Of a stretch of 64,000 nt of DNA, positions 1 through 60,310 are shown piece after piece. Position numbers and translations under genes: made by a program. The first letter of the stretch is position 1. Each line of letters opens with the position of its first letter. Location: contig JACOYB010000005.1 in NCBI GenBank assembly GCA_016182085.1, forward strand, positions 1,013 to 65,012. Reading direction: 5' to 3'. The notes below the pieces were generated by a model. That model was not told the DNA's origin, ran no database searches, and saw only the letters and a list, made by a program, of their open reading frames with translations. The stretch comes from Candidatus Magasanikiibacteriota bacterium. Lineage in GTDB: Bacteria; Patescibacteriota; Patescibacteriia; Magasanikbacterales; GWA2-37-8.

Positions 1-855
1 CAACTGTTTTTCAGGATTCGACTCTTTTTCAACATATTCAGAAATATCTGGAGTCACGGCATAGAGCGACTTAAACAACACCTTCTCTTCACCCATCTTT
101 CGTACCAACTTACTATAGTAACCTTTAGATACCGTGCAATCAGCATCAATAAAATCAATGATCGATTTAAGCTCGTCAGGATTAGCATTATTTTTTTGCG
201 CCTTTTTTAGCCTTTCCAAAGCAATATGCCCACCAATATTGCGTGCCTGACCTCCAGGATTATATTTATCATCTACAGCAAACATTTCGCTACTTGCATC
301 TATAGGAAAAATTTTAACACCAGACTCTACACATTCTTTAAAAATAGTTTTTTCATGCTCTGTTAACCCAAGCTGGCTAAGTTTTTCCCGCACACCGATT
401 ATAATTTCATCCAAAGCACCGCCTTCGATAAATTCTCTTTGAGCTATCTGTAATAAACGCAAACAGCGTAGGGTATTTTGATTTTCTTGAAAAGACGGCG
501 TATTACTTTTAGCATCTTCAGTTCGATTATTAATTACATAAAGCGTCTCCGATGAAATCTTAGTGTGAGCGCCTGCTTCATGACTAAGAGATTGTAATAG
601 ACGCCAAAAATTATTATTTTGCAATTCTCTATAAGCAGGGACAACTGTAACCACCTGCAGTTTATTATCTACCTCGGGTAGGTAATCTCCATACTTTGTA
701 ATGATATCATCATGGACGCGTTTAAATTCTCTTTGCCTTCTTTCCAAAAATGGTTTTCTCCAATCATAAAAATCACCTGATGAAATTGGTTCAGGTATTT
801 CTGAATTATGGCTGCCATTACTCATCGCGAAGTTTTGTTCTGGTGATCTGATCAT
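1..855 (-). CDS. Partial GT2-family glycosyltransferase. The N-terminal part is present and the C-terminus lies beyond the left edge.
   Basis: The reverse-strand ORF starts near 855 (ATG) and runs off the window. The translation contains a GT2-like N-terminal motif (LQVVTVVPAYRE) and a DxD-like IDADC. No stop codon occurs before position 1. Confidence 0.35.
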   Translation of the reverse strand, partial: MIRSPEQNFAMSNGSHNSEIPEPISSGDFYDWRKPFLERRQREFKRVHDDIITKYGDYLPEVDNKLQVVTVVPAYRELQNNNFWRLLQSLSHEAGAHTKISSETLYVINNRTEDAKSNTPSFQENQNTLRCLRLLQIAQREFIEGGALDEIIIGVREKLSQLGLTEHEKTIFKECVESGVKIFPIDASSEMFAVDDKYNPGGQARNIGGHIALERLKKAQKNNANPDELKSIIDFIDADCTVSKGYYSKLVRKMGEEKVLFKSLYAVTPDISEYVEKESNPEKQL

Positions 856-919
856 GGAATAGTGTATATCAATTCTGACAATCTCTACTCTATCACATCA
901 TTAAAATCGCTTCAATTAA

Positions 920-1100
920 CAATTTATTTACAGCGGAATACGATAAACTTGATTGGTTAGCCAAAAGGGGCTGGGGAATCCTGTCCGATTTTGGTGGATT
1001 TACGACGGTGCAGCGGGGATACGAAAAGTTACGAGGGGAATTTACGGAATAGGACGGGCGGAAGGAGGGGTTGGGGGAGGAATTCCGCCCGCCCACCGGT
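920..1100 (+). repeat. IR-A, the left inverted repeat of the defense island. It consists of a remnant of the recombinase 3' coding end (about 30 codons) followed by an 88-bp GC-rich core.
   Basis: Positions 1011-1098 are the reverse complement of 9983-10070 with 1 mismatch in 88 nt. Positions 938-1010 translate to FTAEYDKLDWLAKRGWGILSDFGGFTTVQ, which resembles the recombinase C-terminus encoded at 11555-11634. Confidence 0.8.
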
Positions 1101-1137
1101 GTGCTTTTTGACGATTTCAAGTTTTTCTTAACCTTCC

Positions 1138-1686
1138 CTATTTATAAAATAACTCATGATTACGAAGTTCTTTTTTTATATCTAAATAATTTGGAAGTGC
1201 TTCCTCAACTAAAGACCAGAATTTTCTGGAGTGATTAAATTCCTTCAAATGGCACATCTCGTGCACTATAATATAATCCTGGTGTTTTTGCGATAAAAAC
1301 ACTATTTTATAATTCAAATTTAGATTGTGCTTGCATGAACAACTACCCCAGCGAGTCTTTTGATTTTTAATAAAGATTTTATTGAACGAAAAACCATACA
1401 CCTTATTATAAAATGCAACTCGTTCATTCACAAGAGCAAATGCTTTATCTTTATTTTCTAGATAATCCTTGTTCGAAAAAGTGCGTATAGCCCTACTATC
1501 CACGCTCTTAAAAAATTGTATTTTGTCCCACACCCATTGTTTTTTATCGGTAATAAATTTTTCAATTATCGATTGCTGAACCCCAAAAGGACTCGTAATC
1601 ACAACACTTCCGTCACAATAGACCGCGAGACGCATTCGTTTTGCTCGCTTGCTTCTTTTGAGTTTATAGGGGATTTTCTTTTCCAT
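1138..1686 (-). CDS. YgjP-like (DUF45/WLM-type) zinc metallohydrolase. This family is commonly encoded next to hsdR.
   Basis: The HEMCH zinc-binding motif is present. The protein is 182 aa and lies immediately downstream of hsdR on the same strand. Confidence 0.55.
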   Translation of the reverse strand: MEKKIPYKLKRSKRAKRMRLAVYCDGSVVITSPFGVQQSIIEKFITDKKQWVWDKIQFFKSVDSRAIRTFSNKDYLENKDKAFALVNERVAFYNKVYGFSFNKIFIKNQKTRWGSCSCKHNLNLNYKIVFLSQKHQDYIIVHEMCHLKEFNHSRKFWSLVEEALPNYLDIKKELRNHELFYK

Positions 1687-1691
1687 ACGCT

Positions 1692-4607
1692 CTAGAATTT
1701 TTTAGTGATTATATCCACCAACCTATTCAAGAATTTCGGAAAATCTTTTACAACAAACCTGCCTTTATAATCTCGTAATATTATCTCCTGCAGCGTTTGT
1801 TTGATATCCTTTATAAAAACATCCCTCTTTGAGGATTCCTGCCACCCAGCATCAAGATCATCCTCTATACGAATTCGCAACTCCTTCACAAACTTTTTAA
1901 TCTCCTCATCTTTTCCACCTTCAATGAATTCCTGCGAGATTACATAGAGCGCGTACTCTTTTAAATCAAGCCCCAAATCTTTCGCTTCGCCCCCTTTTGT
2001 TCGGATATCTCTCATCAATTCTTCATACCGACGAATTCGTTCAGCAAGATCAATCTGATTCTGTTCAAACTCTTTACGAATAGCGGTAAGTCGCTCGCTG
2101 AACTTCTGGTAGGCTGGATTTTCATCTAGGTTGATTGAAATTTCTTGCTTGAGCATTTTCTCAAGATTCAATGCCTTTTCTTCCTCATCCATCCCTTTTA
2201 ATCGCTCGAGCGTATATAAATCATTCACGCGAAGTTCACGAAAATTCTTAGTGATTCCTTCATAATCAATAATATTACTTTTTTGAATTAATTCTCTAAC
2301 TTTCTCACCGTATTCTTCCAGTAAATATCTGTCGTCTTCACTTCGAAAATGTTTCAAAAATGCTAAATAAAAACTCGTTACCCACTCAAACTGGCGAATA
2401 TACTGCTTCAAGAATGGATCAGGCGATAAAAACTCAAACAAACTCTTGAGCTTCATATATTTCTCAACAAAGTATTTTTGTTTGTCTTGATTATCCATAA
2501 AAATCTTCAAGCATCGGCGAAGGTTATCCATCGACGGATCTTCGATATTCACTCCTGTAAATATCTTCATCATATCATTCAATACGTCCACAAATCTCTC
2601 TTTCACCCGTTCAATATCAATCATCGCTGAATCTATAACATCCTCATCAAAATCAAGCGCATCATACAAATTTCTTGTAATTCCATAATAATCAATAATT
2701 TTTCCCGCTTCTTTGTTTTTATACACACGATTTGTACGCGCAATCGCCTGCAAAAGGTTGTGGTCACGAAGTGGTTTATCGAGATACATCACCTGCTCTA
2801 TAGGCGCATCAAAGCCAGTAAGCAACATGTCGCACACTAAAAGAAATTTCAAAGACGATTTTGGATCTTTGAATCGTTCAATAATTTGTTCGCGTTCACG
2901 CTTGCTAGTGTTATACACTTTCAAATCATCAGCATCGCTATTTGGATCTCCTGGCGAATACACCACGGCTGACCATTCGGTAGGAATAAACTTATCAAGC
3001 AATTTCTTATAAGTCGCCACAGCTTCGCGGTCATACGCTACAATCTGCGCCTTAAAGCCATTTGGCTCAACATAGAGCTTGTAATGTTCAATAATGTCCC
3101 TTGCAACGGCTTCCATGCGTTTTGGCAATTTAACCAAAGCCGCTTTCTTACCATATTTCTTCACCAACTCGGTTTTTTGTTTATCTGGCAAATCTCCGGC
3201 AATTTCTTCAAACTTCTGATCAAGTTTTTCTTCATCAATAGAAAACTTAGAAAGTCGCGCTTCATAAGTCACCGGGATTGTCGCTCCGTCATCAATAGCT
3301 TGCTGAATGGAATAATAATCCAAATACCGTTTTCCCTCACCTTCATAATTTCGGAAAGTGTTTGTATGTGTTTTATCCACCGGAGTACCAGTGAATCCAA
3401 AGAAGAATGCTTTTTTAAACGCATTACGCATATTGATACCCGATACGCCCTCGTCGCCACGGTGTGCTTCGTCAGAAAGAATAATCACATTCTCGTCTAG
3501 ATTTTGTACTTTATCACCAAGTTCGGAAAACTTTTGAATGGTCGTGATGAAAATACCTTTCTCTGGTGATTGAATTTTTAGCTCTAAATCCTTACGAGAA
3601 GTGACACGAACAATATTTTTTCCTCCCGCATTAGTAAATGTTTCAAATATCTGATCGTCCAAATCTACGCGATCAACCAAAATAAACACCTTCGGATTAG
3701 CAAGTTGTTTATTGAAACGCAATTTCCATGCCGTAAAATACATTGTAAGCGTCTTGCCCGATCCTTGCGTATGCCAAATAAGCCCTTGTCGTTTTTCTTT
3801 ATTCACAACACGCTCCACAATTTTATTTGTTGCTCTCATTTGCTGATAGCGAGCCATTTTCTTCACCAATCTTTCTTTTTCTTTTTCAAATAAAATAAAG
3901 TTTTGAACGATATCCAAAAAGTTTGCTTTAGAGAGTAATGAAAAAAGTGTCATCTCCAGTTCTCCGCCTAGTTCTTTTTCGGCATTCTCATCACGCCACT
4001 GAAGAAAATATTGTTTTGGCGTACCGGTTGCACCGTAAACAGTTTTGAGCCCGTCACTGGCGATATTGAAACAGTTTGGAATAAATAATTTACGAGCAAC
4101 TTTTTCATATCGTTTTATTTGGTCAATACCATTCTCAAAACTAACTCCTTCGGAAGCTGTCGGACTTTTGGCTTCAATATCCACGAGCGGAAACCCGTTC
4201 ACAAAAATGATAATATCCGGACGAATATTTTCGGTGTCGCCTTCAAAATAGAACTGATTAGTAACGACAAATTGATTATTTTCCGGATTGTCAAAATCAA
4301 GCAGTTTGTAATCGTGCTTTTTTCCTGTAGATGAATTCTTAAGGTTGATCCCATCTCGTAATACTTTCAAAAAAGCTTCGTTGTTATCAATTTTTCTCAC
4401 CTCGCGAATCACATTCTTGATCTCGCTTTCGTTCGCAGTAGGATTGAGGGCAGAAAGCGCGCGTTCCAAAAGCGGAGTGGTGATGTATTCCGTCTCAAGT
4501 TCGCGATACTTCACAAACTCCTCCGGCTTTATATACTCAAAACCAAGCTTATCTTTAATAAACTTGATGATGTAATTTTCGATTGTAACTTGTTCGTTGA
4601 ATTTCAT
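1692..4607 (-). CDS. hsdR: Type I restriction enzyme R subunit (HsdR)
   Basis: The protein is 971 aa with helicase motifs (GSGKT Walker A, DEAH box in ILSDEAHRG). Its start overlaps the hsdS stop by 4 bp. Confidence 0.9.
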   Translation of the reverse strand: MKFNEQVTIENYIIKFIKDKLGFEYIKPEEFVKYRELETEYITTPLLERALSALNPTANESEIKNVIREVRKIDNNEAFLKVLRDGINLKNSSTGKKHDYKLLDFDNPENNQFVVTNQFYFEGDTENIRPDIIIFVNGFPLVDIEAKSPTASEGVSFENGIDQIKRYEKVARKLFIPNCFNIASDGLKTVYGATGTPKQYFLQWRDENAEKELGGELEMTLFSLLSKANFLDIVQNFILFEKEKERLVKKMARYQQMRATNKIVERVVNKEKRQGLIWHTQGSGKTLTMYFTAWKLRFNKQLANPKVFILVDRVDLDDQIFETFTNAGGKNIVRVTSRKDLELKIQSPEKGIFITTIQKFSELGDKVQNLDENVIILSDEAHRGDEGVSGINMRNAFKKAFFFGFTGTPVDKTHTNTFRNYEGEGKRYLDYYSIQQAIDDGATIPVTYEARLSKFSIDEEKLDQKFEEIAGDLPDKQKTELVKKYGKKAALVKLPKRMEAVARDIIEHYKLYVEPNGFKAQIVAYDREAVATYKKLLDKFIPTEWSAVVYSPGDPNSDADDLKVYNTSKREREQIIERFKDPKSSLKFLLVCDMLLTGFDAPIEQVMYLDKPLRDHNLLQAIARTNRVYKNKEAGKIIDYYGITRNLYDALDFDEDVIDSAMIDIERVKERFVDVLNDMMKIFTGVNIEDPSMDNLRRCLKIFMDNQDKQKYFVEKYMKLKSLFEFLSPDPFLKQYIRQFEWVTSFYLAFLKHFRSEDDRYLLEEYGEKVRELIQKSNIIDYEGITKNFRELRVNDLYTLERLKGMDEEEKALNLEKMLKQEISINLDENPAYQKFSERLTAIRKEFEQNQIDLAERIRRYEELMRDIRTKGGEAKDLGLDLKEYALYVISQEFIEGGKDEEIKKFVKELRIRIEDDLDAGWQESSKRDVFIKDIKQTLQEIILRDYKGRFVVKDFPKFLNRLVDIITKKF

Positions 4608-5746
4608 ATATTTGTTCGTACTACCCCACTCAACAAGTCCTGCATTAGGCCTTTCTTGAGGAGAGTAAGTTTTTCTTTTAATTTTTTATTGACCAAAATC
4701 TTTTTATCAACTGCGGAAAGAATTTCTGCAATCTCTTTTATTTCAGAGGTTTTTTTTGGCTTCGGTATTGGTATCATAAAAAGTCGATCCTTATTTAACT
4801 TCGGTTGAGTCATCCCCGTTAGATACGGCCCCAGATTAAGCATATTCAAATAATCTTGGACATATTGTTGTAAAAATTTATCTTCAAATCTTTGAATATG
4901 TGCATGATTATTCACCCAATACTTACCAGTTGCAGTAAAAGCAATAGGATAATTTCTATCTTTAAGATTCGCGCCATCTTCCGAAATTAGTAATAACGTT
5001 TCTTCAAAAATATAATCACTAACATAATCAACGATGCCTGTTGCGCCGTAGTAGGGATATTGTCCAGTGCTTCTTTTTGATTTAGTTATCGGAATGCGTT
5101 TGTTATCCAAGTTTTTAGAAATATCTTCCAAGCTCAACACATCCCACTCTTCCGGAATCTGTCCGATTTTTGTCTCCTTAAATTTTGTATGCCCAATCCC
5201 GCGAGTAAAAAGCTGTTGCATCAATCCGCGCTTGAGCTTTTCTGTCGCCTCAATCACTTCCTGCGTTTTCGCAATATCCTCATCCACCGCTCCCAAAATT
5301 TCGGCAATTTTTTGTTGTTCAGGGAACGGCGGAACCAACACTTCCAAATTCTGATATTGCGATATGTAGAATCGTTTATGACTTCCAGTAGGAAAATTAA
5401 CAGATTTCATTTTTGCATAAAAAAATCGCAAATCCACATCAGATCTTTTTTCTTTCAAAATTTTAATAGCTGATGACTTTATTTTAAACGGAAAATCAAC
5501 AAACTTACTATCAGTTGTAAAATCATCAAAGATGATTACTGGAAGATTTTTATAAACCCCAAAATCTTCATCCGTATAACCCAATACAAAAGACTTATTT
5601 GCCGTAAGTACGGGGGTCTTTGCTTTGTCGCTATAACTTGTACTTTTAACGATATAATTATCGGGACGCTCATAACCCAAAATATCGCTCAATTTTTTAA
5701 GCGACCACCCTTTTGGAATATTTTGTTGTGTGATGTTAGTTTTCAT
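4604..5746 (-). CDS. hsdS: Type I restriction-modification specificity subunit (HsdS)
   Basis: The protein is 380 aa with two target-recognition-domain halves and conserved central and C-terminal coiled regions (LKRGLMQQL / LKKGLMQDLL repeats). Confidence 0.8.
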   Translation of the reverse strand: MKTNITQQNIPKGWSLKKLSDILGYERPDNYIVKSTSYSDKAKTPVLTANKSFVLGYTDEDFGVYKNLPVIIFDDFTTDSKFVDFPFKIKSSAIKILKEKRSDVDLRFFYAKMKSVNFPTGSHKRFYISQYQNLEVLVPPFPEQQKIAEILGAVDEDIAKTQEVIEATEKLKRGLMQQLFTRGIGHTKFKETKIGQIPEEWDVLSLEDISKNLDNKRIPITKSKRSTGQYPYYGATGIVDYVSDYIFEETLLLISEDGANLKDRNYPIAFTATGKYWVNNHAHIQRFEDKFLQQYVQDYLNMLNLGPYLTGMTQPKLNKDRLFMIPIPKPKKTSEIKEIAEILSAVDKKILVNKKLKEKLTLLKKGLMQDLLSGVVRTNI

Positions 5747-5748
5747 AC

Positions 5749-6648
5749 CTAACTATCAATTCTAATAATCTTAGACGCGTGATTTGGATCTTCGGTTTTC
5801 TCCTGAATTGTAAGTTGTCTATAATACCTACAAGAATATCTTAAATAATCTTCTAACTCATCCAGATCTATATTGCCCTTCTTCAAATCAACGGGGTAGA
5901 TTGAAATAATCAATTTCTCACAGATATTAAGTGTTTTAGAAGTTTCTACATAACTTGCAATGATTTCCTTGATTGATCCTGTGCGAGATAAGTAAGAGTC
6001 CCTTCCATGTTGAGTATTAATCAGTGGAATAGTGACTGCGCTATCCTTAGCAGATTCCAATGCAACGTAAGACCACAGTCCATTCAGGGCTTGAATAAAA
6101 TCATCAATTTCAGATTTCACTCGATTATTACCATTTTTTACAGAATTCACTACGAGATAAAACTTTTTTCCATTTTGCTCAACTTCAATTGTTTTTCCAA
6201 CATCATGGTTAGTCCCAATAGACAACTTAGCGGAAATATCAGTATTTAAGTGTTCGGTTTTTCCATTGTAAAATTTCTGAATTACTTGATTCTGAATACT
6301 ATTTGCCTTTTGAACATTCCCCCCAAGAGACATATCAAATTGATCATTTACAGGGACCACAAGAGCACCTTTATTTTCAAAAGCATCGCCGACTCTGATT
6401 TCCAGAAAATTATCTTTACCGCGCAAGTGATAACCAAAGTGTGATTTCGGTTTATTTTTTACAATAGCAAATAGAAGGATAATAATAAAAACAAAGGCGA
6501 AAACATCAACTTTTTTTAGATAAACATCGGCAGAACCTGCTGTGCTATAACTGGCAATCTCTACAAATAGCCAAAAGATACCTACAAATGACACAAGGTC
6601 CACTAAAATAAATTTCCATTTTTTTATCCACCTCTTTAATAAACTCAT
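5749..6648 (-). CDS. Two-TM N-terminus plus a Macro-like domain protein. It is a candidate type II Thoeris ThsA-like effector.
   Basis: There are two N-terminal hydrophobic helices (residues ~12-32 and 45-63). The soluble domain carries a macro-like motif, GDAFENKGALVVPVNDQFDMSLGGNV. The gene overlaps the upstream TIR-like gene by 4 bp. Confidence 0.45.
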   Translation of the reverse strand: MSLLKRWIKKWKFILVDLVSFVGIFWLFVEIASYSTAGSADVYLKKVDVFAFVFIIILLFAIVKNKPKSHFGYHLRGKDNFLEIRVGDAFENKGALVVPVNDQFDMSLGGNVQKANSIQNQVIQKFYNGKTEHLNTDISAKLSIGTNHDVGKTIEVEQNGKKFYLVVNSVKNGNNRVKSEIDDFIQALNGLWSYVALESAKDSAVTIPLINTQHGRDSYLSRTGSIKEIIASYVETSKTLNICEKLIISIYPVDLKKGNIDLDELEDYLRYSCRYYRQLTIQEKTEDPNHASKIIRIDS

Positions 6649-7148
6649 AGCCCTAGATTTTTATAAGTTTCTTCATTATACCTGTAAGCTCCTGATTTTC
6701 TCTCTCCTCTATATTTTTTATCCAACATCTCCCACTCATCTAACGCTTTTGCAATAATTTTTTGGTTAAAACTAACGTGCACAGCCAACTCATCAACAAG
6801 AGTTGCCGGACAAAGACTTCCATCCTTATACCTTTTTCCATTCAGATTTATAACAATAATTGGCAAACTTCTTTTAACAGCTTGTTCGACCTCCCAGAGT
6901 ACAAACTTACGAAGCAATTTTGTTTTTTCACCGACAAGCAAGACAAAAACTTTCGTATTTTGGAGTCTTTCACGAAGCTTGGCTTTAATTGTTTCCTCGC
7001 TTGCCCATGACATTAAATTATTTAAATCATGAGCATCATAAAAGTTAAATGGTGTATTATCATTTTGCTTCCATGCTTGCATCAGCCGATAATAACGAAT
7101 GTCATTATCGGCATCAAACGCAACATAAGTTTTATTTGTGTAGGCCAT
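6645..7148 (-). CDS. TIR-like (DUF1863 / ThsB-like) protein
   Basis: The protein is 167 aa. Its N-terminal YVAFDADNDIRYYRLMQAW and central KVFVLLVGEKTKLLRKFVLWEVEQA match the TIR-like DUF1863 pattern (FSFHYE..D, VLIGS.T..S.WV..EI). Confidence 0.55.
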   Translation of the reverse strand: MAYTNKTYVAFDADNDIRYYRLMQAWKQNDNTPFNFYDAHDLNNLMSWASEETIKAKLRERLQNTKVFVLLVGEKTKLLRKFVLWEVEQAVKRSLPIIVINLNGKRYKDGSLCPATLVDELAVHVSFNQKIIAKALDEWEMLDKKYRGERKSGAYRYNEETYKNLGL

Positions 7149-7175
7149 ATATTTTTAATATTTTAATTCTAAAAA

Positions 7176-7988
7176 TTATTCCCCACTTTCAATATTCTTT
7201 ACCTTCTTAGACTTCTTTATTCTCGTATGCGCCTTTCCTATCGCGTCCGGCGTTGGCAGATGTTCCGGCATAGTGCCGCCAAGGCTAGCAATGGTGTTGC
7301 GAACTTTTTGACCAACTTCATAATGCGCCAGGCTAGCGTTAGTTTGACCTTGTATATTTTCGCGCTTTATTTTTGCATCAGTTTGAGTGGCGCGAAATAA
7401 GTTGGCTGCTAACTCTTCACTATTCATGTGGTCTAAAATCTTTTGCGACTTCTTCAATCCCTTTTTTTCATGAATATCCTGCATTGTTAGTCCGCCATAC
7501 AAACCTTTATAGCCATAATTCTGGAAAATTGCATAGTTTTCTACCCCTGCTATAGCCGCGGTTTTAGTTAATGCCGTATTGTGTTTTTTCATTTCTTCAC
7601 GCAAATAAACACGACTATGATCTTCAATCAAATTATCAGTTTTTTCTTGGCGTCGGGTCTGAATTGCAAAATAGGTTTGACCTTTAGCAACCACAACCTT
7701 GGTTGGGTCGGAATTTTGCACTATCAAATAACAGGCGTACCGAGATAAATATATGGTATCTATCGGCCTTTCTGCTCCAGAGCCAATCTGGACCATTTCG
7801 TCCATATGGACAAAATGGTTGTGGATAACTTCCCCGCTATTTTCACAAGCAATTTGCGCTTTATCAATAACATTCTGAAATTTACGATAGTCTGGATACT
7901 CTAAAGCCTTGGCCAAATCACGTGAAGACCAATATTCCGCACCATTATTATCTATTCTTTTTATTGATTCAAAGGTATTGTCTGCCAT
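7176..7988 (-). CDS. dinD: DinD-like (DNA-damage-inducible protein D / Bro-N-like) protein
   Basis: The N-terminal FESIKRIDNNGAEYWSSRDLAKALEYPDYRKFQNVIDKAQIAC and the following YLSRYACYLIVQNSDP resemble the DinD family. Confidence 0.5.
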   Translation of the reverse strand: MADNTFESIKRIDNNGAEYWSSRDLAKALEYPDYRKFQNVIDKAQIACENSGEVIHNHFVHMDEMVQIGSGAERPIDTIYLSRYACYLIVQNSDPTKVVVAKGQTYFAIQTRRQEKTDNLIEDHSRVYLREEMKKHNTALTKTAAIAGVENYAIFQNYGYKGLYGGLTMQDIHEKKGLKKSQKILDHMNSEELAANLFRATQTDAKIKRENIQGQTNASLAHYEVGQKVRNTIASLGGTMPEHLPTPDAIGKAHTRIKKSKKVKNIESGE

Positions 7989-7993
7989 ATTAT

Positions 7994-9679
7994 TTAGTAG
8001 TTTAATTCTTTTAAATAGCCTGCAACTTTTTTGTCGGCTGCTTCACGCTCTTTTTCAATCTCCTTCACCTCGCTCCACACTGTTTTCACATCCACCACTT
8101 CCTCATCCTCGCCGTTTTCTACATAGCGTCGCACATTGAGATTAAACTCGTTTTCCTTTAGCTCTTTGATATCCACAACTCGAGCGTATTTTTCAATATC
8201 TCGGTAGCCCTCAAACGCCAACACCATTTTTTCTATATCTTTTTTTCGTAAGCGGTTCTGGTTTTTTCCTTCCTCAAAATCTTGTTCGGCATCAATGATG
8301 AGAATTTTGTTCTTGTGACCCTCTGGTTTATTTTTGTTAAATATCACAATTGCTGCCGGAATACCCGTACCATAAAAAAGTTTTGCAGGAAGAGCAATGA
8401 TGGCTTCGATTAAATCGTTTTTGATAAGATTTTCGCGGATACGACCTTCTGCGCCACCACGGAAAAGCACACCGTGTGGAAGCACGATTCCGGCACGGCC
8501 ATTTTCGTTCATTGATTTCACCATGTGAAGCACGAAAGCATAATCGGCTTTTTTGGCTGGAGGCATTTCGTAGCCGGCAACTCGGCCGTATTTATCATGT
8601 TTAAATATTTCGTATTCCCATTCACTTATAGAATACGGAGGATTAGCAACGCAGATGTCGAACGTCTTCAGCGAACCGTCTGGGTTTAGAAACTTCGGAT
8701 CAGCGAGCGTGTCTCCACGCTGAATGTCGGCACTATCAAGCCCGTGTAGGAACATGTTAATCTTTGCGATTGCATATGTCCCGATATTAATTTCCTGTCC
8801 ATAAAGATAAAGCGAACGGGCTTTTTTGTCTCCCTCTTGGTCTTTTAGATGATGATACGCCTCCAAAAGGAAGCCTCCAGAGCCAACAGCCATGTCATAT
8901 ATATGATCCTTCTCGTGCGGCTTTAAGATGCTAATAATCACACGCTCAACTTCGCGTGGAGTGTAGAATTCTCCACCTTTTTTACCGGCATCCGCCGCAA
9001 ATTGCTCGATTAGATATTCGTACGCATCGCCAAGAAGATCAGAACTGATATAATTGTCTCCAAAATTAAATTGTGAGAAGTGATTTATAAGGCGCTGGAT
9101 TGTTTCATTTGGAAATTTATCTTTATTTGCAAAATCTAGATCATCAAAAATCTTGTCGAGCTTTGGACTATTTGCATTTGTGAGCTTATCAAAAATCCCG
9201 TTTAGTTTATGGCCGATTCCTTCGGCTTGTTTTTGAATTACTTCCCATCGGCAATCTTTTGGAACTTGAAAACGGTGATTGTGGTCTGCGCGCGCAATTT
9301 CTTCATCGTGATATTCTTCTAAAACTTTTTTATACTCTTCATCCCATGAGTCACTAATGCGTTTGTAAAAAAGAAGCCCAAAAATATATTTTTTATAATC
9401 CGAACTATCTATCTTCCCGCGCAAAATATCGGCGCTTCTCCAAAGAAATTGCTTGAGTTGAGTTAGATTCATCTTTCCTTCATCATCTGCGCTAGGAACA
9501 CCGAGCTCTTTTATAATGCTTTTATCGTTTGCGATACGCTCAATATCTTCGGGTTTATATTTTCGATCTTTTCGAGGGCCAACTCGCAAAGGAGTAATGA
9601 GGCCCCTTTTTTCCCAGTTACGAAGAGTGTCTTGATGAATTCCAAATATTTTCGAAACTTCGCTGATTGAGAGTAACAT
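7994..9679 (-). CDS. hsdM: Type I RM DNA methyltransferase (HsdM), with an N-terminal MerR/excisionase-like HTH extension
   Basis: The NPPY catalytic motif (VANPPYSISEW) and the HsdM N-terminal domain (MNLTQLKQFLWRSADILRG) are present. The first ~65 aa (SISEVSKIFGIHQDTLRNWEKRGLI) look like a MerR-type HTH fused in-frame. Confidence 0.85.
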   Translation of the reverse strand: MLLSISEVSKIFGIHQDTLRNWEKRGLITPLRVGPRKDRKYKPEDIERIANDKSIIKELGVPSADDEGKMNLTQLKQFLWRSADILRGKIDSSDYKKYIFGLLFYKRISDSWDEEYKKVLEEYHDEEIARADHNHRFQVPKDCRWEVIQKQAEGIGHKLNGIFDKLTNANSPKLDKIFDDLDFANKDKFPNETIQRLINHFSQFNFGDNYISSDLLGDAYEYLIEQFAADAGKKGGEFYTPREVERVIISILKPHEKDHIYDMAVGSGGFLLEAYHHLKDQEGDKKARSLYLYGQEINIGTYAIAKINMFLHGLDSADIQRGDTLADPKFLNPDGSLKTFDICVANPPYSISEWEYEIFKHDKYGRVAGYEMPPAKKADYAFVLHMVKSMNENGRAGIVLPHGVLFRGGAEGRIRENLIKNDLIEAIIALPAKLFYGTGIPAAIVIFNKNKPEGHKNKILIIDAEQDFEEGKNQNRLRKKDIEKMVLAFEGYRDIEKYARVVDIKELKENEFNLNVRRYVENGEDEEVVDVKTVWSEVKEIEKEREAADKKVAGYLKELNY

Positions 9680-9711
9680 ATTAATTTTTGACTATTTTTT
9701 TAATTTTTCTT

Positions 9712-9741
9712 ATGATATCATAGGTCTGTATGAATTGTCAA
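9712..9741 (-). promoter_or_regulatory. Candidate sigma70-like promoter for the hsdM operon
   Basis: On the minus strand, TTGACA is followed by an 18-nt spacer and TATCAT, about 35 nt upstream of the hsdM ATG. Confidence 0.35.
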
Positions 9742-9859
9742 GGAATAATCAAAAATTCATATATTTTCATAGGTTTGATAGGGAGTTCCTACCTCCTCCG
9801 AGCGCGCACGGGTGGGCGGGGCAAGCGCGGAGAAAAGAAAAGTTTGCTTTTGGCCACCG

Positions 9860-9940
9860 TAAAGTTCGAGCCTATAATCGAAATGAGTGAGTGAAATATT
9901 TTGCTTGCAAAATTGTTTCCGAGCGAATGAGTTTATATCT
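9860..9940 (+). repeat. Dispersed intergenic repeat family, copy a
   Basis: CGAAATGAGTGAG, a hairpin, then CGAGCGAATGAGTTTATAT. Confidence 0.6.
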
Positions 9941-9982
9941 TAATATTTTTTTACAGGTTGTTTGGCAGTTTTTAAAAAGCGC

Positions 9983-10145
9983 ACTCGCCTAGGCGAGGCG
10001 GGCGGAATTCCTCCCCCAACCCCTCCTTCCGCCCGTCCTATTCCGTAAATTCCCCTCGTAATTTTTCGTATCCCCGCTGCGAAAACCGAAATGGGGTTAA
10101 AATTGGTAAAATCCCCCAACCTTTTTTGGCTAACCAATCAAATTT
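9983..10145 (-). repeat. IR-B, the right inverted repeat of the defense island (inverted copy of IR-A)
   Basis: The 88-bp core matches IR-A with 1 mismatch. The outer part begins GATTGGTTAGCCAAAA, as IR-A does, and then diverges (~70% identity). Small palindromes sit at the inner ends (CACCGGTG in A, CTCGCCTAGGCGAG in B). Confidence 0.8.
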
Positions 10146-10206
10146 TTTGCCTTTGTCCGCTCGGCGGACGCCAAAAGCAAACTTTTCTAATATAATGTAA
10201 TTTTAT

Positions 10207-11694
10207 ATGGCCAAATACTTTTTGTACGCTCGCAAGTCTAGCGAATCGGAAGAGCGTCAGGTTATGTCGATTGACGCTCAAATCGACGAGTTAAAAGAAT
10301 TTGCCGTCAAAGAAAAACTTGAAATCGTCGCCTCGCTTTGCGAGGCAAAAACTGCCAAACAACCTGGCCGAACTTTGTTCGGCGAAATGTTATCGCGAAT
10401 TGATGCCGGCGAGGCCGACGGCATTTTGGCTTGGCACCCCGACCGCCTAGCCCGCAACAGCGTGGATGGCGGTCGGATAATATATATGTTGGACACTGGT
10501 AAAATAAATTCCCTCAAATTTCCAACGTTTTGGTTTGACAACACACCGCAAGGAAAGTTTATGCTTAATATTTCTTTCGGCCAAAGCAAATATTATGTAG
10601 ATAATCTAAGTGAAAATGTGAAACGTGGAATAAGGCAAAAACTCCGCAAAGGAATTTGGCCGGGGAAAGCTCCGTTTGGATATAATAATGACCTGCGCCA
10701 TCACACCATACTCCCCGACCCCGAAAAGCATAAACTTGTAAAAAGGATTTTTGAATTATATGCGACCGGCGAATATACTTTTGAACAACTAATACAAAAA
10801 TTTGATATTCGTACTAAGACGAACAAAATAATGATGCCGGGCGACATGCAACATATTCTCAAAAATCCTTTTTACAGCGGCGTGTTTCGTTTCAACAACG
10901 AACTCCACCAGGGTACGCATAAACCGATAATAACAAAGAAACTTTTTGACGATGCCCAAGCGGTAATGGCAGCCAGAGGAAAACGCCGCAAGAAAAGCAG
11001 TCATGGATATATTTTTACCGACCTAATGAGTTGCGGGAATTGTGGCCGAGCCATTACCGCCGAAAAGCAAAAAGGTCATGTTTATTATCGCTGTACAAAG
11101 AAACGAACTAACTGCGATGAAAAATATATCCGCGAGGAAGAACTGCTAAGCCAGTTTAGAGACACATTACAAAAAGTTTCTTTGTCAGACGACTGGACCA
11201 AAAATTTGCTTGCTAAACTGGACGAGGAGCAAGCATCCGCAATCCAGTCGTCTAGCGTCCTTGTTCAGGCCGTAGAAGGACAAATAATGCCCATTAAGAC
11301 TAAGATGGACAAACTCCTTGATTCCCATTTAGACGGCATTATTGATAAACAAGATTACGTAAACAAAAAAGAAAAACTCCTAAATGAAAAACTTGATCTG
11401 GAAGCCAAAATTAAAGAAGTGAGGAACAAGGGCAACGATTGGCTCGAACCGATGAGGGAATTTATTTTAGACAGTTGCCAAGCCAAAAAAATCGCCGCGA
11501 ACGGCGATTCTCTTCAAATTCGAACATTTCTTAAAAAAATAGGCTCGAACTTTACGGTGAAAGGCAAAAAATTTGATTGGTTAGCGAAAAGGGGCTGGAA
11601 AATTATGCCCGATTTTGGCCGGTTTCCGACTGTGCAGGCCCGCTCGGATTCGAACCGAGAACCTCGGTTTTGGAGACCGATGTTTTACCATTGA
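10207..11694 (+). CDS. Large serine recombinase (resolvase catalytic domain, recombinase domain and zinc ribbon)
   Basis: The N-terminal YARKSS..SIDAQ contains the catalytic Ser region. Cys-rich CGNCG...YYRC and coiled-coil segments are present. The protein is 495 aa. The 3' end overlaps tRNA-Trp on the opposite strand, so the true stop may lie earlier. Confidence 0.85.
   Translation: MAKYFLYARKSSESEERQVMSIDAQIDELKEFAVKEKLEIVASLCEAKTAKQPGRTLFGEMLSRIDAGEADGILAWHPDRLARNSVDGGRIIYMLDTGKINSLKFPTFWFDNTPQGKFMLNISFGQSKYYVDNLSENVKRGIRQKLRKGIWPGKAPFGYNNDLRHHTILPDPEKHKLVKRIFELYATGEYTFEQLIQKFDIRTKTNKIMMPGDMQHILKNPFYSGVFRFNNELHQGTHKPIITKKLFDDAQAVMAARGKRRKKSSHGYIFTDLMSCGNCGRAITAEKQKGHVYYRCTKKRTNCDEKYIREEELLSQFRDTLQKVSLSDDWTKNLLAKLDEEQASAIQSSSVLVQAVEGQIMPIKTKMDKLLDSHLDGIIDKQDYVNKKEKLLNEKLDLEAKIKEVRNKGNDWLEPMREFILDSCQAKKIAANGDSLQIRTFLKKIGSNFTVKGKKFDWLAKRGWKIMPDFGRFPTVQARSDSNREPRFWRPMFYH
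11573..11634 (+). repeat. Copy C of the island repeat. It is the intact recombinase 3' end, abutting the tRNA-Trp 3' terminus.
   Basis: The 62 nt are ~80% identical to 950-1011 (direct orientation). Similarity stops exactly at the tRNA-Trp discriminator base. Confidence 0.7.
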
Positions 11695-11706
11695 AACTAC
11701 AGGCCT
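11635..11706 (-). tRNA. tRNA-Trp (anticodon CCA)
   Basis: The sequence folds as a cloverleaf: acceptor AGGCCTG/CGGGCCT, anticodon loop CTCCAAA, T-loop TTCGAAT. It closely resembles E. coli tRNA-Trp. Confidence 0.85.
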
Positions 11707-11716
11707 AAGGAACAAA

Positions 11717-11755
11717 CCCCGCCCGAAAATTATCAGAGCGGGGTTTATTTTTTTA
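11717..11755. terminator. Hairpin terminator (CCCCGC..GCGGGG followed by a T-run) between tRNA-Trp/recombinase and rpmG
   Basis: A 6-bp GC stem is followed by TTTATTTTTTT on the plus strand. A weaker T-run follows on the minus strand. Confidence 0.5.
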
Positions 11756-11908
11756 CTTGGTCTCTTTATGAGTGGTGTGCTTCTTGCAAAACTTGCAGAA
11801 CTTTTCCAACTCCAAACGATTCTTCAAAACTTTTTTATTTTTGTTTGGAAAATAGTTCATACGTTTGCATTCCGTACACTCCATTTTCACCCTATTATCT
11901 TGGGACAT
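11753..11908 (-). CDS. rpmG: Ribosomal protein L33 (absent from the ORF track because it is shorter than 60 aa)
   Basis: Translation gives [51 protein letters not shown]. This is the classic L33 signature (ECTECK...LEL.K.C..C.KHT.HKETK). Confidence 0.85.
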
Positions 11909-11947
11909 ATTTTTAAATAAATTATTAATTTTTTAAAACTCGACTCG

Positions 11948-12020
11948 AGCCGTTGTCGGGAATTGAACCCGAGACCTTTTCCTTACCATGGAAATGCTCT
12001 ACCATCTGAGCTACAACGGC
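11948..12020 (-). tRNA. tRNA-Thr (anticodon GGT)
   Basis: Cloverleaf: acceptor GCCGTTG/CAACGGC, anticodon stem TTTCC/GGAAA, loop ATGGTAA. Confidence 0.8.
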
Positions 12021-12091
12021 ATTGATAGTTATAAAGTTAAAAGTTATAAAGTCCAACCAAACTTTCAACTTACGCCGCTCGCGCGGCGTTG

Positions 12092-12173
12092 TGGGTGGAG
12101 TAGGATTCGAACCTACGAAGGCGGAGCCAACAGATTTACAGTCTGCTCCCTTTGACCGCTCGGGAATCCACCC
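12092..12173 (-). tRNA. tRNA-Tyr (anticodon GTA, long variable arm)
   Basis: GGGTGGATTCCCGAGCGGTCAAAGGGAGCAGACTGTAAATCTG...GGTTCGAATCC closely resembles E. coli tRNA-Tyr. Confidence 0.85.
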
Positions 12174-12194
12174 ATTTGACTTTAATTTAAAGTC

Positions 12195-12270
12195 TGGAGC
12201 CGTCTCGGGGGCTCGAACCCCGGACCCACAGTTTACAAAACTGTTGCTCTACCAGCTGAGCTAAGACGGC
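12195..12270 (-). tRNA. tRNA-Thr (anticodon TGT), with CCA encoded
   Basis: GCCGTCTTAGCTCAGCTGGTAGAGCAACAGTTTTGTAAACTGTGGGTCCGGGGTTCGAGCCCCCGAGACGGCTCCA. Confidence 0.85.
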
Positions 12271-12287
12271 GATTTACTAGATTATTA

Positions 12288-12420
12288 TACTACCACAGTT
12301 TATGCCGCCTCGAGGCGGCACCCCGCTGTGACGGTGGCAAAACTGTTGCTCCCCGCCCGCAACGCCTGAGCAAGCTCAAGCTTGTGATGGCGGGCAGGTA
12401 CCAGCTGAGCTAAGACGGCA
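12288..12420 (-). pseudogene. Disrupted 5' copy of tRNA-Thr(TGT), interrupted by two hairpin-containing insertions. It lacks the T-arm and acceptor 3' half.
   Basis: Three segments are identical to the adjacent tRNA-Thr: its first 21 nt, GAGCAACAGTTTTG, and TAAACTGTGG. They are separated by a 48-nt and a 35-nt insert. The second insert contains the perfect palindrome GCCGCCTCGAGGCGGC. Confidence 0.6.
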
Positions 12421-12446
12421 CTTCACTGGCCTCGTCATGCCAGTCT

Positions 12447-13355
12447 TTATATTTTATAAATTCTATCTTTAAGGTTATGTAATTTCTGATTTTCGGGATT
12501 GACTAACCGCAAATCGCCATACGCCTTAATAGCCAATGGCTTATCGCCGCATATTATAGCAATTTCAATCAGGAAGTCAAGGTACTTTGGATTTTGAGGT
12601 TCTAGCTCTACAGCCTGCAATATGGACTCTTTAGCCACCTGGGGCTGGCCTACCTTTAACAGCAGTTCGGAAAGGTGGTAAAATCGAGGTGAAAACGAAT
12701 CATTGACCAAAACCGCCCGTTGGTAATACTCTATCGCCTCTTCCAAATCACCCTGACTTTCGGCAATTTCTGCTAGTTTTACGAGGACATTGTCATCATC
12801 CGGTTCCATTTTGATAAGGAACTGATACGTTTGCCTGGCTTCTTCTACGGAATTTTTAGCTAGATATGTATCGCCTAATCCTCTATACGCGCTCGTGGAT
12901 TTAGGGTCATTTTTTATGGCTGTAATAAATCGTTCCTCGGCTTGATCGTAATTTCCCTCATTTAAATGCTGTTCGCCCTCAATTATTAATTGTGATAATT
13001 TTTCTTCTTGGTTTTCCACCGGCAGAGCTTCATTCTTTAATTTTGTTTTTAATGCCTGCTCGTGATGCAGCATGCGTTCAATTTTACCGACATAAATTCT
13101 AAATTGCAGCTGCAGTTTGCCCCACAACGCTTTGCGCAGCGGCCCAAAGATTTTCATGATCTTTTTTTTGAGCAAACTTGTATTTTCTTCAATGCGTTTG
13201 TTTATAATCTCTTTTTTCTTGCGATATATTTTTTCTTCCTGCAAATTTTTAATATCTAAATTGGCGAGCTGCGGAAATTTATGAATAACAACAAACACGA
13301 CTACTCCCAAGGCAATGGCACCGATTATTAAAAATATCGCGGACAACATATACAT
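12447..13355 (-). CDS. Membrane-anchored TPR-repeat protein
   Basis: An N-terminal TM helix is followed by several TPR-like repeats (AYRGLGDTYLAKNSVEEA, AIEYYQRAVLVN). Confidence 0.6.
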   Translation of the reverse strand: MYMLSAIFLIIGAIALGVVVFVVIHKFPQLANLDIKNLQEEKIYRKKKEIINKRIEENTSLLKKKIMKIFGPLRKALWGKLQLQFRIYVGKIERMLHHEQALKTKLKNEALPVENQEEKLSQLIIEGEQHLNEGNYDQAEERFITAIKNDPKSTSAYRGLGDTYLAKNSVEEARQTYQFLIKMEPDDDNVLVKLAEIAESQGDLEEAIEYYQRAVLVNDSFSPRFYHLSELLLKVGQPQVAKESILQAVELEPQNPKYLDFLIEIAIICGDKPLAIKAYGDLRLVNPENQKLHNLKDRIYKI

Positions 13356-14102
13356 TTATCTAAAAGAATCTACAATCGCTTCCCAGCTTTCAATGTTTGC
13401 CGAGGCTGCGCCGACAAGCACGCCGCTAATATTTGGATTATTTAAATACTGTTGCACGTTTTCCGGACGCACGCTGCCGCCATAGAGAATCACAGGCGTA
13501 ACACCGGTTAAGGCTATGACTTGTTTTTTGATCAGTTCATGCATGCGTTCGGCTTCTACCGGATCACAGGCCTGGCCAGTGCCGATTGCCCAAACAGGTT
13601 CGTAAGCCACAATAAGTTCCTTGTTTTCCGGCCAGGCAATATTATGGAATGCGGATCTGATTTGAGTTTCAATTGTCTCTTCAGTTTTATTACTCTGTCT
13701 TTCATGTTCTGTCTCACCCACACAAATTACGGGCACAAGACTCGCGGCCAGCGCAGCTTCCACTTTTTGTCTGACCTCGTGATTGGTCTCATTAAATATA
13801 TGACGCCGTTCAGAATGACCCACCAGCGCGTAGGTACAACCCGCGGCTTTATACATATGGGCTGAAATTTCGCCGGTATAACCGCCTTTATCTATCCAAT
13901 AAATATTTTGCGCGCCGGTACTAATTGGCGTATCTTTTAAAGTTTTAGATACATCGGACAGCGCCAGAGCGCTTGGAAAAACCGCCATAACAATATGTTC
14001 CGGCAGCGTTAACTTTTTCGCGAGCGCCAAAGCCAAGGCCTCACTTTCACTGTGATCCAAGTACATTTTCCAATTGGCGAATAAATATTTTTTGTCGCTC
14101 AT
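13356..14102 (-). CDS. tpiA: Triosephosphate isomerase
   Basis: FANWKMY, GHSERR and AYEPVWAIGTG motifs are present. Confidence 0.9.
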   Translation of the reverse strand: MSDKKYLFANWKMYLDHSESEALALALAKKLTLPEHIVMAVFPSALALSDVSKTLKDTPISTGAQNIYWIDKGGYTGEISAHMYKAAGCTYALVGHSERRHIFNETNHEVRQKVEAALAASLVPVICVGETEHERQSNKTEETIETQIRSAFHNIAWPENKELIVAYEPVWAIGTGQACDPVEAERMHELIKKQVIALTGVTPVILYGGSVRPENVQQYLNNPNISGVLVGAASANIESWEAIVDSFR

Positions 14103-28296: not shown

Positions 28297-28692
28297 TTAT
28301 TTTGCCTGCGGATGAGATTCTTTTGCAAAAAAGTGCTGCACTTTTTCTATAATCTCACCTACGGGATGATCTGATTTTACGATATAATCATCTGCTCCGA
28401 GCCTGAGACCTTTTTTAATGTCATCATCTTCGCCAAGCATAGTAAGAACTATCACGGGGATGGCTTTGGTACCCGGGAATTTTTTAAGTTCTTCTAAAAC
28501 CTCGAAGCCGTGCTTTTTAGGCAACACTAAATCCAGCAGCACCAGGTCTGGGTGTTTGGATTTCACCATTTCCAAACCCGATTCGCCGTCAAATGCCTGC
28601 AAAGCATCAAACCCGGCATCAAAAAGTTCGGTATAGAGCACTTTGGCAAGCACTTCGTCGTCTTCTACTATTACAATTTTAATTTTCTCCAT
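28297..28692 (-). CDS. Stand-alone response-regulator receiver
   Basis: The protein is 131 aa. The motif DLVLLDLVLPKKHG is present. Its stop abuts the dockerin gene start. Confidence 0.8.
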   Translation of the reverse strand: MEKIKIVIVEDDEVLAKVLYTELFDAGFDALQAFDGESGLEMVKSKHPDLVLLDLVLPKKHGFEVLEELKKFPGTKAIPVIVLTMLGEDDDIKKGLRLGADDYIVKSDHPVGEIIEKVQHFFAKESHPQAK

Positions 28693-28826
28693 ATGCGAAA
28701 TGAGTGAGGGAAATAATCAAATGTTTTTGATTATTTCTGAACGAATGAGTATATACCTTAGTATATGCGAAATGAGTGAATATAAAATTAAATGTATTTA
28801 ACTTTATACGAGCGAGTGAATGTATA
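28691..28826 (+). repeat. Dispersed repeat family, copy b (two tandem ~66-nt units)
   Basis: The unit GCGAAATGAGTGAG, hairpin, GAACGAATGAGTATATA occurs twice. The first unit abuts the response-regulator start codon. Confidence 0.7.
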
Positions 28827-38903: not shown

Positions 38904-39308
38904 CTATTTCTTATGTCTCCCGATACCGGGGTTGGTATCCTCAAGTCCCACTTCCCAAGTTTTAGGTACGCCAACACTAGCAAAATCTTTGATCTTTCGC
39001 ATGTCGTTAATCCCCAATTTTGCGAGCTCCTGTATGAGCGCGGCTTTGTTAACTTTTTCATCACCTGAAACAACCTTAATACATATCTCTCTTATTCTTA
39101 ACCTTTCATAGCCCGGATCTTGTTTGGCGAGAGCCAGCATTTCCGCATCCTTAACCACATCAAAGCTATGCTTTAGACTGCTTCTGGCCGCAGCCCGATC
39201 TTCTTCACTTTTACCAAAAACAGCTGTAATAGCTAATTCAATTTTCACCCTTTGTCTTCCAATTTCTCTTGATCCTACTCCCATTCCTCCTTCAGATGAT
39301 TTTGCCAT
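38904..39308 (-). CDS. Hypothetical protein (134 aa) occupying the position where rplK-rplA is normally found
   Basis: It does not resemble L11 or L1. Its start codon abuts a copy of the dispersed repeat. Confidence 0.35.
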   Translation of the reverse strand: MAKSSEGGMGVGSREIGRQRVKIELAITAVFGKSEEDRAAARSSLKHSFDVVKDAEMLALAKQDPGYERLRIREICIKVVSGDEKVNKAALIQELAKLGINDMRKIKDFASVGVPKTWEVGLEDTNPGIGRHKK

Positions 39309-39400
39309 ATACGAAATGAGTGAGGTAAAAGTTAAATGTGTTTAACTTTTACCGAACGAATGAGTATATATGCGGCTTTAGCCCCTATACATTAAAATTC
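39301..39400 (+). repeat. Dispersed repeat family, copy e (abuts the start of the 38904..39308 gene)
   Basis: ATACGAAATGAGTGAG, a perfect hairpin GTAAAAGTTAAA/TTTAACTTTTAC, then CGAACGAATGAGTATATATGCGGCTTTAGCCCCTATAC. Confidence 0.7.
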
Positions 39401-60184: not shown

Positions 60185-60310
60185 ATACGAAATGAGTGAG
60201 AGAAATAGCCGGTGAGATATTTATAACTCGCAAGCGGTTATAAATATTGAACCCGGATATTTCCGAGTGAATGAGTATATATGGGCTTTAGCCCATATAA
60301 TCGAAATGAA
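60181..60310 (+). repeat. Dispersed repeat family, copy f (abuts the GT2 start)
   Basis: CATATACGAAATGAGTGAG, a hairpin (ATATTTATAAC..GTTATAAATAT), then CGAGTGAATGAGTATATATGGGCTTTAGCCCATATAATCG. Confidence 0.7.

Follow-up and report, generated by a model that had tools for sequence, protein, structure and literature searches.

A probable defence-gene element of a large serine recombinase at the tRNA-Trp gene of a Candidatus Magasanikiibacteriota genome

Where a cluster of defence genes lies between two inverted repeats and next to a serine recombinase gene, the question is what the recombinase moves and where the mobile unit ends. This question arises in the window, the 64,000-nucleotide (nt) stretch of DNA analysed in this study (Candidatus Magasanikiibacteriota bacterium, assembly GCA_016182085.1, contig JACOYB010000005.1, positions 1,013 to 65,012 of the forward strand), in which a type I restriction system and a Thoeris pair are enclosed by GC-rich inverted repeats beside a gene for a large serine recombinase (LSR). 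We scanned species-representative genomes and metagenome contigs and obtained 160 further loci with recombinases 50-93% identical to that of the window; 163 loci were analysed by self-comparison. Based on these comparisons, we consider it quite likely that positions 1010-11637 are one integrated copy of a small LSR-moved element inserted at the 3' end of a tRNA-Trp gene. Seen beside its relatives, this copy, which looks somewhat decayed, would belong to a large, coherent family of serine-recombinase mini-islands that target tRNA ends.

Three attachment-like sites and the limits of the element

The recombinase is encoded on the plus strand by an open reading frame (ORF) of 495 amino acids (aa; 10207-11694). 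It carries Resolvase (PF00239, aa 5-150, E = 1.3e-19), Recombinase (PF07508, aa 172-256) and Zn_ribbon_recom (PF13408, aa 270-319) domains and the motif YARKSSESEERQ at its N-terminus, and its best NCBIfam similarities are to XisF and CcrB, far under their cut-offs. The native part of the gene stops at 11637. Beyond this point, the ORF overruns its native end by 57 nt into the antisense of the tRNA-Trp gene, which supplies the last 19 codons, ARSDSNREPRFWRPMFYH (11637-11694). This tRNA gene (anticodon CCA, 11634-11706, minus strand; detected by ARAGORN, Rfam score 61.5 bits) is the first of a tRNA cluster and the integration target.

The recombinase 3' end is found three times in the window. 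All three copies of the recombinase-derived stretch close with TGCAG, followed by a GC-rich core in the two repeat copies and by the tRNA in the intact one. We denote the recombinase 3' stretch as P, the shared GCAG as O, the core as P' and the host sides as B and B'. The site at the intact copy, R, is attR-like (P-O-B', 11560-11637, plus strand), with its P arm at 11560-11633 and O at 11634-11637. There it meets host DNA, as the last native recombinase codons join the tRNA-Trp 3' end, which overlaps O, at the common GCAG. The site M (9974-10154) is a complete attP-like copy in inverted P-O-P' form just upstream of the recombinase promoter. On the minus strand, it comprises a P' arm (9974-10076) that includes the palindrome CTCGCCTAGGCGAG (9984-9997), O as CTGC, the inverted GCAG (10077-10080), and a P arm (10081-10154). 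The outer edge of M bears a small hairpin (GTCCGC-TCG-GCGGAC, 10155-10169), next to which X' and a TATAAT box (10191-10196) form the presumed recombinase promoter region (10170-10196, plus strand), conserved in the related loci L001 and L002. An inverted copy of X', named X, lies at 9836-9854 (arms 9836-9859 and 10165-10188, 92%); the X element also precedes the xre gene of relatives.

The third site, L, is attL-like and reads (P-old)-O-P' (927-1109, of which 1010-1109 is the element's own part). Its plus-strand O (1010-1013) is the GCAG common to L, M and R, the inferred crossover region, and the L/M and M/R repeat pairs share just these 4 nt. The P' arm (1014-1109, plus strand) extends the recombinase frame by 12 codons, RGYEKLRGEFTE (1014-1052, with the stop at 1050-1052), and continues with a GC-rich stem (1055-1093), CACCGGTG and a T run. 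To the left of O lies P-old (927-1009, plus strand), a remnant of an older recombinase gene that covers its last ~28 codons (..FTAEYDKLDWLAKRGWGILSDFGGFTTV); together with O (927-1013), it is a direct copy of the recombinase 3' end at 11551-11637, with 78% identity.

The repeats that enclose the cargo are L paired with M. A repeat search delimits the core as 1010-1093 and 9997-10080, complementary at 83 of 84 nt (99%), and BLAST lengthens the pair to 945-1093 and 9997-10145 (84% over 150 nt). The initial annotation had recognised a near-perfect GC-rich inverted repeat here, but took its core as 88 nt with one mismatch and set the right arm at 9983-10070, 10-14 nt off. Its reading of the outer arms as resembling the recombinase C-terminus was right, with correctly quoted translations: the left arm is 78% identical to the intact 3' end and the right arm (10077-10159, an inverted copy of 11555-11637) 71%. 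Both arms contain GATTGGTTAGCCAAAA, at 951-966 on the left and as its reverse complement at 10124-10139 on the right. The two palindromes, CACCGGTG (1094-1101) and CTCGCCTAGGCGAG, are also there. In the intact copy, a small correction puts the start of DWLAK... at 11575 and the end of the Q codon at 11637.

Three features had been overlooked: the third site at the recombinase 3' end beside tRNA-Trp, the 19-nt inverted repeat of X and X' (9836-9854 and 10170-10188), and recombinase-gene fragments inside both arms. The fragments are minus-strand, reverse-complement copies, namely R5a (1110-1129) of recombinase nt 104-123 (10310-10329, 20/20), R5b (9954-9973) of nt 141-160 (10347-10366, 20/20) and R3a (9855-9875) of the 21 nt ahead of the P arm (11539-11559, 21/21).

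A repeat by chance is excluded: no second match like this one of 84 nt at 99% turned up in the 14 kb searched, and L001, L002 and L004, with unrelated cargo, have the repeat pair in the corresponding place. The idea that the repeats are att-type sites containing recombinase-gene 3' ends is upheld; as brackets of the mobile unit they fail, because the unit takes in the recombinase and ends at GCAG 11634-11637. Nor does the locus behave as a terminal-inverted-repeat transposon: its right end, 11637, is beyond the inverted repeat, and, O being inverted at M, there is no direct target-site duplication at the repeats.

Other identities considered for the core found no support. For a degenerate tRNA, ARAGORN and alignment gave none, and an Rfam scan of 1-14000 for known RNAs found tRNAs only. 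Regarded as a strong terminator, the P' stem folds no better than shuffled sequence (z = -0.66), and a consensus terminator scan misses it because of its 19-nt loop; any terminator role is putative. A terminator-like structure on the plus strand, the stem AAACCCCGC...GCGGGGTTT followed by a T run, is found at 11713-11755, just past the 5' side of tRNA-Trp.

To the left of the element, the window begins with a minus-strand gene of at least 285 aa (1-870; the protein begins MIRSPEQNF...). No counterpart of this gene was found in the nine related loci searched, empty-site and occupied, and the comparison did not reveal the original B flank of the window copy. The gene may belong to older island material and not to the core chromosome.

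Insertion at tRNA genes and the exchanged recombinase tail

The loci are mostly from Patescibacteria, with others from Gammaproteobacteria, Nitrospira, Thermodesulfovibrio and Kiritimatiellia metagenome-assembled genomes; the record of Schleiferia thermophila DSM 21410 (L012) also carries the layout. The M/R pair, which shares the P arm, was detected in 126 of 163 loci (median 87 nt, median identity 99.1%), and in 61 loci the L/M pair, which shares the P' arm, was also in range (median 114 nt, median identity 99.1%). Where sequence downstream was available, essentially every locus has an opposite-strand tRNA gene that starts no more than a few bases from the end of the P arm. The targets are tRNA-Trp, Ser, Gln, Asn, Arg or Gly, and the length of the cargo arc varies from 0.8 to 8.9 kb. 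The recombinases nearest to that of the window, in L001 and L004 (93%) and L002 (80%), occupy the same chromosomal locus with the same three-site layout and unrelated cargo. The window, L001 and L002 share the context tRNAs-TPR-TIM-peptidase M16-ProRS, and their cores and frames are 85-90% conserved.

Related genomes with an empty tRNA-Trp target are also found. L169-L172 have the same ProRS-M16-TIM-TPR-tRNA block without a recombinase, and their flank is unrelated from GCAG onward. L174 retains only a recombinase 3' remnant at the tRNA site. Comparison with relatives that lack the island, as proposed in the initial annotation, thus shows an empty site and a break exactly at GCAG. The hybrid junctions of an integrated element are also present, as L reads B-O-P' in L001 and R reads P-O-B', and the joined P-O-P' occurs with an L-type flank in L176 and L177. 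In tandem arrays (L022/L110, L034, L042, L086, L100 and L085), neighbouring copies meet at P1-O-P2' junctions. These junctions explain P-old as what remains of an earlier element upstream; the left repeat combines an attL with the arm of that deleted element.

Three loci show the element in another arrangement. L177 and L176 read recombinase-P-O-P'-R5a(-)-cargo, the joint expected from recombination between L and R, and M in L176 is a 195-nt, 96% inverted copy of this P-O-P' joint. L015, a contig of 4.6 kb, has its parts in the same order, a direct repeat of 51 nt at its ends and an N gap inside M. To judge by their sequence, the three would fit a circle with two inverted attP-like sites, or a head-to-tail tandem.

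In the mechanism that we propose, the attachment site of the free form, P-O-P', would overlap the end of the recombinase gene. P would be the last ~25 native codons and O the GCAG, and P' would supply 12 more codons, a stop and the GC-rich stem with its T run. Recombination with the tRNA end (B-O-B') would create two junctions. L would be B-O-P' on the far side of the cargo, with an older P arm occupying the B position in the window, and R would be P-O-B' at the tRNA, where the recombinase ORF would swap its own tail for tRNA antisense. We infer that the recombinase itself catalyses both excision, through L x R, and integration, through attP x attB, and that the crossover lies inside GCAG. Where LSRs cross over with a 2-bp stagger, the shared core seen here is just these 4 nt, and 8 nt, TGGCGGTG, in the L012 lineage.

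The recombinase tails are in line with this exchange. Throughout the protein database, integrated copies can be told by a '..DSN..' tail, which is antisense to the T-arm of the tRNA; of 55 database homologues inspected, most have a tRNA-antisense end such as ..RDSNPR... The first P' codons, on the other hand, specify a peptide that distant lineages have in common, [FY]EK[IL]R[TG][DE]F. This conservation indicates that the P-O-P' form is read as a continuation of the recombinase and, taken with the tRNA-antisense ends of the homologues, that the full-length form must be made in a state other than the integrated one. Two close variants that bear the tail are on record, P0298 and P0310, reached through cluster lists, and both have a circle/tandem-type flank. 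A search with the P-plus-tail peptide returned only ORFs of 39-84 aa and missed known full-length relatives, so it was uninformative. An exact look-up of the window recombinase in protein records gave no entry, and phage and plasmid collections held only distant relatives of it, below 30% identity.

Near-identical recombinases bear different tRNA-derived tails, which points to recent movement between sites or hosts. In the P0288 cluster, the recombinase is ~99% identical to that of Schleiferia thermophila and has at least six different tRNA-derived tails; it also occurs in a bin with the label Pacearchaeota. Either very recent spread or mis-binning may account for this.

Cargo orientation and the internal inverted site

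The initial annotation had presented the locus as a recombinase-invertible or mobilisable cassette. A mobile defence island is borne out, but not an invertible one. Like Hin or Gin, the recombinase of an invertible cassette would flip the cargo and so act as an on/off or phase-variation switch. The cargo does lie within a long, near-perfect inverted repeat beside a serine recombinase gene, as this would require; the arms are ~99% identical in most relatives, which could mean ongoing exchange, and many contigs break at M. We nevertheless regard such a switch as decidedly improbable. In 69 of 69 informative loci, the gene beside M lies on the minus strand, divergent from the recombinase gene, and encodes an XRE-type regulator of 65-71 aa; a flipped cargo arc was seen in none. 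R5a is always at L and R5b-R3a always at M, the recombinase always reads into the tRNA, and in no locus does the tRNA lie upstream of M. Because both orientations would be expected among ~160 independent assemblies and one was seen, frequent recombination between L and M or between M and R is unsupported; as assemblies and not reads were compared, rare flipping within a population may still occur. Moreover, the cargo promoter, an hsdM promoter-like site at 9741-9712, is inside the segment, so that a flip would not switch the cargo. The enzyme itself is an LSR of 495 aa with a zinc ribbon rather than a small invertase of ~190 aa with a C-terminal HTH.

Contig ends do cluster at M, but breaks at a repeat that exceeds the assembler word size are expected from assembly alone and need no flipping. 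The breaks, together with the gap inside M of L015, could also be taken to mean that M itself is an artefact, mis-joined from reads of circular and integrated forms. We give this practically no credence, given that M has unique sequence on both sides, was recovered by many assemblers, and is present in the Schleiferia thermophila DSM 21410 record and in contigs of 100-700 kb. Only slightly more credible, and still very improbable, is that the two repeats are debris, unrelated leftovers of two dead elements inserted in opposite directions and without a current role. The window by itself might be read in this way, as its L holds the leftover arm of an older element (927-1009) and the P arm of its M has decayed. 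Against it, the P' tail peptide is conserved, and the L/M/R arrangement with ~99% identical arms extends over 126 loci in several phyla and over recombinases that share only 50% identity.

The turnover of cargo admits a further explanation. The element could consist of two separately exchangeable modules, a cargo arc (P'...P' inverted) and a recombinase arc (P inverted...P). M would then serve cargo swaps, either by double recombination between inverted att sites, as a natural equivalent of recombinase-mediated cassette exchange, or by homologous recombination within the conserved frames. Inverted half-sites do bound both arcs. Furthermore, the window, L001 and L002 share the recombinase, the site and the frames P'-j-R5a and X-R3a-R5b-j-P', while their cargo is wholly different, with breakpoints at the frame edges. 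However, no locus has a lone cargo arc or a lone recombinase arc at a tRNA, L is of attL type rather than attP so that partners for a double att exchange are not evident, and tandem accretion followed by deletion between neighbouring elements explains the turnover equally. A two-module element is accordingly unlikely in our judgement, and we retain a single element moved by its LSR.

What M does in such an element is a separate matter. It sits between the cargo, whose first gene in relatives is the small XRE regulator, and the recombinase promoter, that is, between two divergent promoters. Our leading model, which we still rate as doubtful, is that M stores a copy of the lost tail and stem. 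Recombination of the inverted P arms would then turn the recombinase gene round, join it to P' and rebuild the full-length gene, making integration self-limiting and reversible. The P arm of M in the window is diverged from R (71% to 11555-11637, where relatives usually have 98-100% and the family median is 99.1%), and the window copy may thus have lost this capacity. About as likely, at a guess, M is a recombinase-binding operator between the divergent promoters; its use in cassette exchange is a third possibility. In more general terms, we tentatively consider that M could be a working part of a widespread class of serine-recombinase mini-islands, either as a lock-and-key device that rebuilds the truncated recombinase or as a pivot for defence-cassette exchange; the co-varying gene fragments and the arm-edge hairpins would then be further recombination or regulatory sites. 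M was also considered as a small gene for a recombinase C-terminal peptide, and no consistent start codon was found across 16 loci.

The gene fragments at the arm edges recur in the family. R5a lies beside L in 22 of 32 loci (as nt 86-123 in L001) and R3a beside M in 31 of 57. In the subfamily of the window, recombinase nt 141-160 are fused beside M to the 21-29 nt preceding P, and the 19-nt X follows. These fragments are 94-100% identical to the resident recombinase gene and track its lineage-specific synonymous changes. In the tRNA-Gln subfamily, they are absent and L, M and R are kept. Exactly between the source stretches of R5a and R5b, at recombinase codons ASLCEA, lies a perfect 17-nt palindrome, GCCTCGCTTTGCGAGGC (10330-10346). 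Single inversions were considered as the origin of R5a, R5b, R3a and X; formally, recombination of two recombinase-gene sites with two palindromic sites would be required, and no mechanism was found.

The hairpin at the M edge, defined as a perfect stem of at least 5 bp, was present in 61 of 84 distinct relatives, compared with 13% of shuffles. Its stems differ between lineages, and the loop is often GAA. In the tRNA-Ser lineage, two small GC-rich hairpins, whose loops are AAA or TTC, break up the R5a beside L; they resemble the M-edge hairpin in type (L012 4748-4829, L177 1587-1660, L176 2974-3044). A MITE-like insertion (resembling a miniature inverted-repeat transposable element) of ~70 nt lies inside the M unit of the window (9876-9946), outside the conserved architecture. 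Further copies of this repeat are found at 28691-28764, 28762-28826, 39307-39371 and 60183-60207. It is absent in L001, and in L002 it lies elsewhere, inside R3a, apparently in the opposite orientation.

Several points weigh against the proposed element and its cycle. L176 and L177 may be head-to-tail tandem copies, L015 has its gap in M, and an assembly-graph artefact is possible in these loci. For the genome of the window, excision is a prediction from sequence comparison. The full-length recombinases with tail that we constructed for L001, L012 and L022 are absent from a 15-billion-protein collection, from which two of five controls were likewise absent. The restoring flip predicted for M was seen in none of the ~160 loci, about ten loci with enough sequence have no M, and the model does not account for R5a, R5b and R3a. 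Lastly, the window copy shows signs of decay: the P arm of its M is only 71% like R, a foreign P arm stands at L, and the separate xre gene is missing.

Known systems and the defence cargo

The element shares the Resolvase, Recombinase and zinc-ribbon domain set with known LSR systems, such as phiC31, Bxb1, A118, the CcrAB recombinases of SCCmec, XisF and SpoIVCA, and like them it inserts site-specifically with a very short shared core. Like the present family, SCC composites build up in tandem at a single site. Unlike in these systems, attP overlaps the stop region of the recombinase gene, the target is the extreme 3' end of a tRNA gene, and the family usually keeps a second, inverted attP-like copy; we know of no such copy in any of those six systems. 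Hin, Gin, Cin and Pin also act on an inverted-repeat-flanked segment adjoining the serine recombinase gene. They are small recombinases with 26-bp sites and a Fis-bound enhancer, and both orientations of their segments coexist, whereas the present family has an LSR, arms of 80-270 nt and one orientation seen. Myxococcus phage Mx8 IntP and the SSV1-type archaeal integrases are tyrosine recombinases with attP inside their own gene, and their integration alters or splits the ORF. Our family resembles them in this ORF change, but here codons antisense to a tRNA take the place of a conserved tail of 12 codons, and to our knowledge an inverted spare copy of the site has been described for neither.

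Like the tycheposons of Prochlorococcus (10.1101/2020.12.28.424599), the elements of our family are small, carry cargo or defence genes, sit at tRNA genes and accumulate in tandem arrays in which the latest arrival adjoins the tRNA. Tycheposons mostly use tyrosine recombinases, a minority use LSRs, and many have replication genes; the passages found by a term search of that study make no mention of an internal inverted att copy (10.1101/2020.12.28.424599). Engineered landing pads such as MiMIC use inverted attP pairs for cassette exchange (10.1101/2020.08.13.249656). Both designs place a cassette between inverted serine-integrase sites; the pads are artificial and both of their sites are attP, while in our family one partner is of attL type and exchange is hypothetical. 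In the literature searched, with incomplete coverage that makes an earlier description possible, only engineered landing pads and no natural element had an internal inverted attP. As far as can be told, the constant internal inverted attachment-site copy of this family is undescribed.

These elements of 3-11 kb seem to be a main vehicle of restriction, Thoeris and other defence genes in Patescibacteria, and they are found too in Gammaproteobacteria, Bacteroidota and Nitrospira. If M controls directionality, a serine integrase would be regulated by the arrangement of its own sites, without a separate directionality factor, which bears on genome engineering. In practical terms, the repeats explain assembly breaks just upstream of the recombinase, and the three-site signature yields exact element boundaries.

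The cargo arc of the window (1138-9679, minus strand throughout; Pfam and PADLOC) contains complete sets for both a type I restriction-modification system (HsdR, HsdM and HsdS) and Thoeris (ThsA and ThsB). The Thoeris pair, ThsA-Macro (5749-6648, PADLOC ThsA 1.2e-38) and ThsB-TIR (6645-7148, ThsB 4e-72), and a Bro-N/PDC-S13 gene (7176-7988) are embedded within the restriction system, between HsdM (7994-9679, MTase_I 8e-143) and HsdS (4604-5746, Specificity_I 7e-60). HsdR (1692-4607, REase_I 8e-138) and a YgjP-like peptidase (1138-1686) follow. The N-terminus of HsdM (7994-8150) is a MerR/HTH_17 domain, excisionase-like, at the place where relatives carry the separate small XRE gene.

Beyond the element, in the tRNA cluster, the 5' half of tRNA-Thr(TGT) is duplicated (12271-12427). 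Positions 12399-12427 repeat 12250-12278 with 90% identity, and GC-rich hairpins lie between the copies; from its sequence, this half-duplication may be the scar of another insertion or a disrupted tRNA copy.

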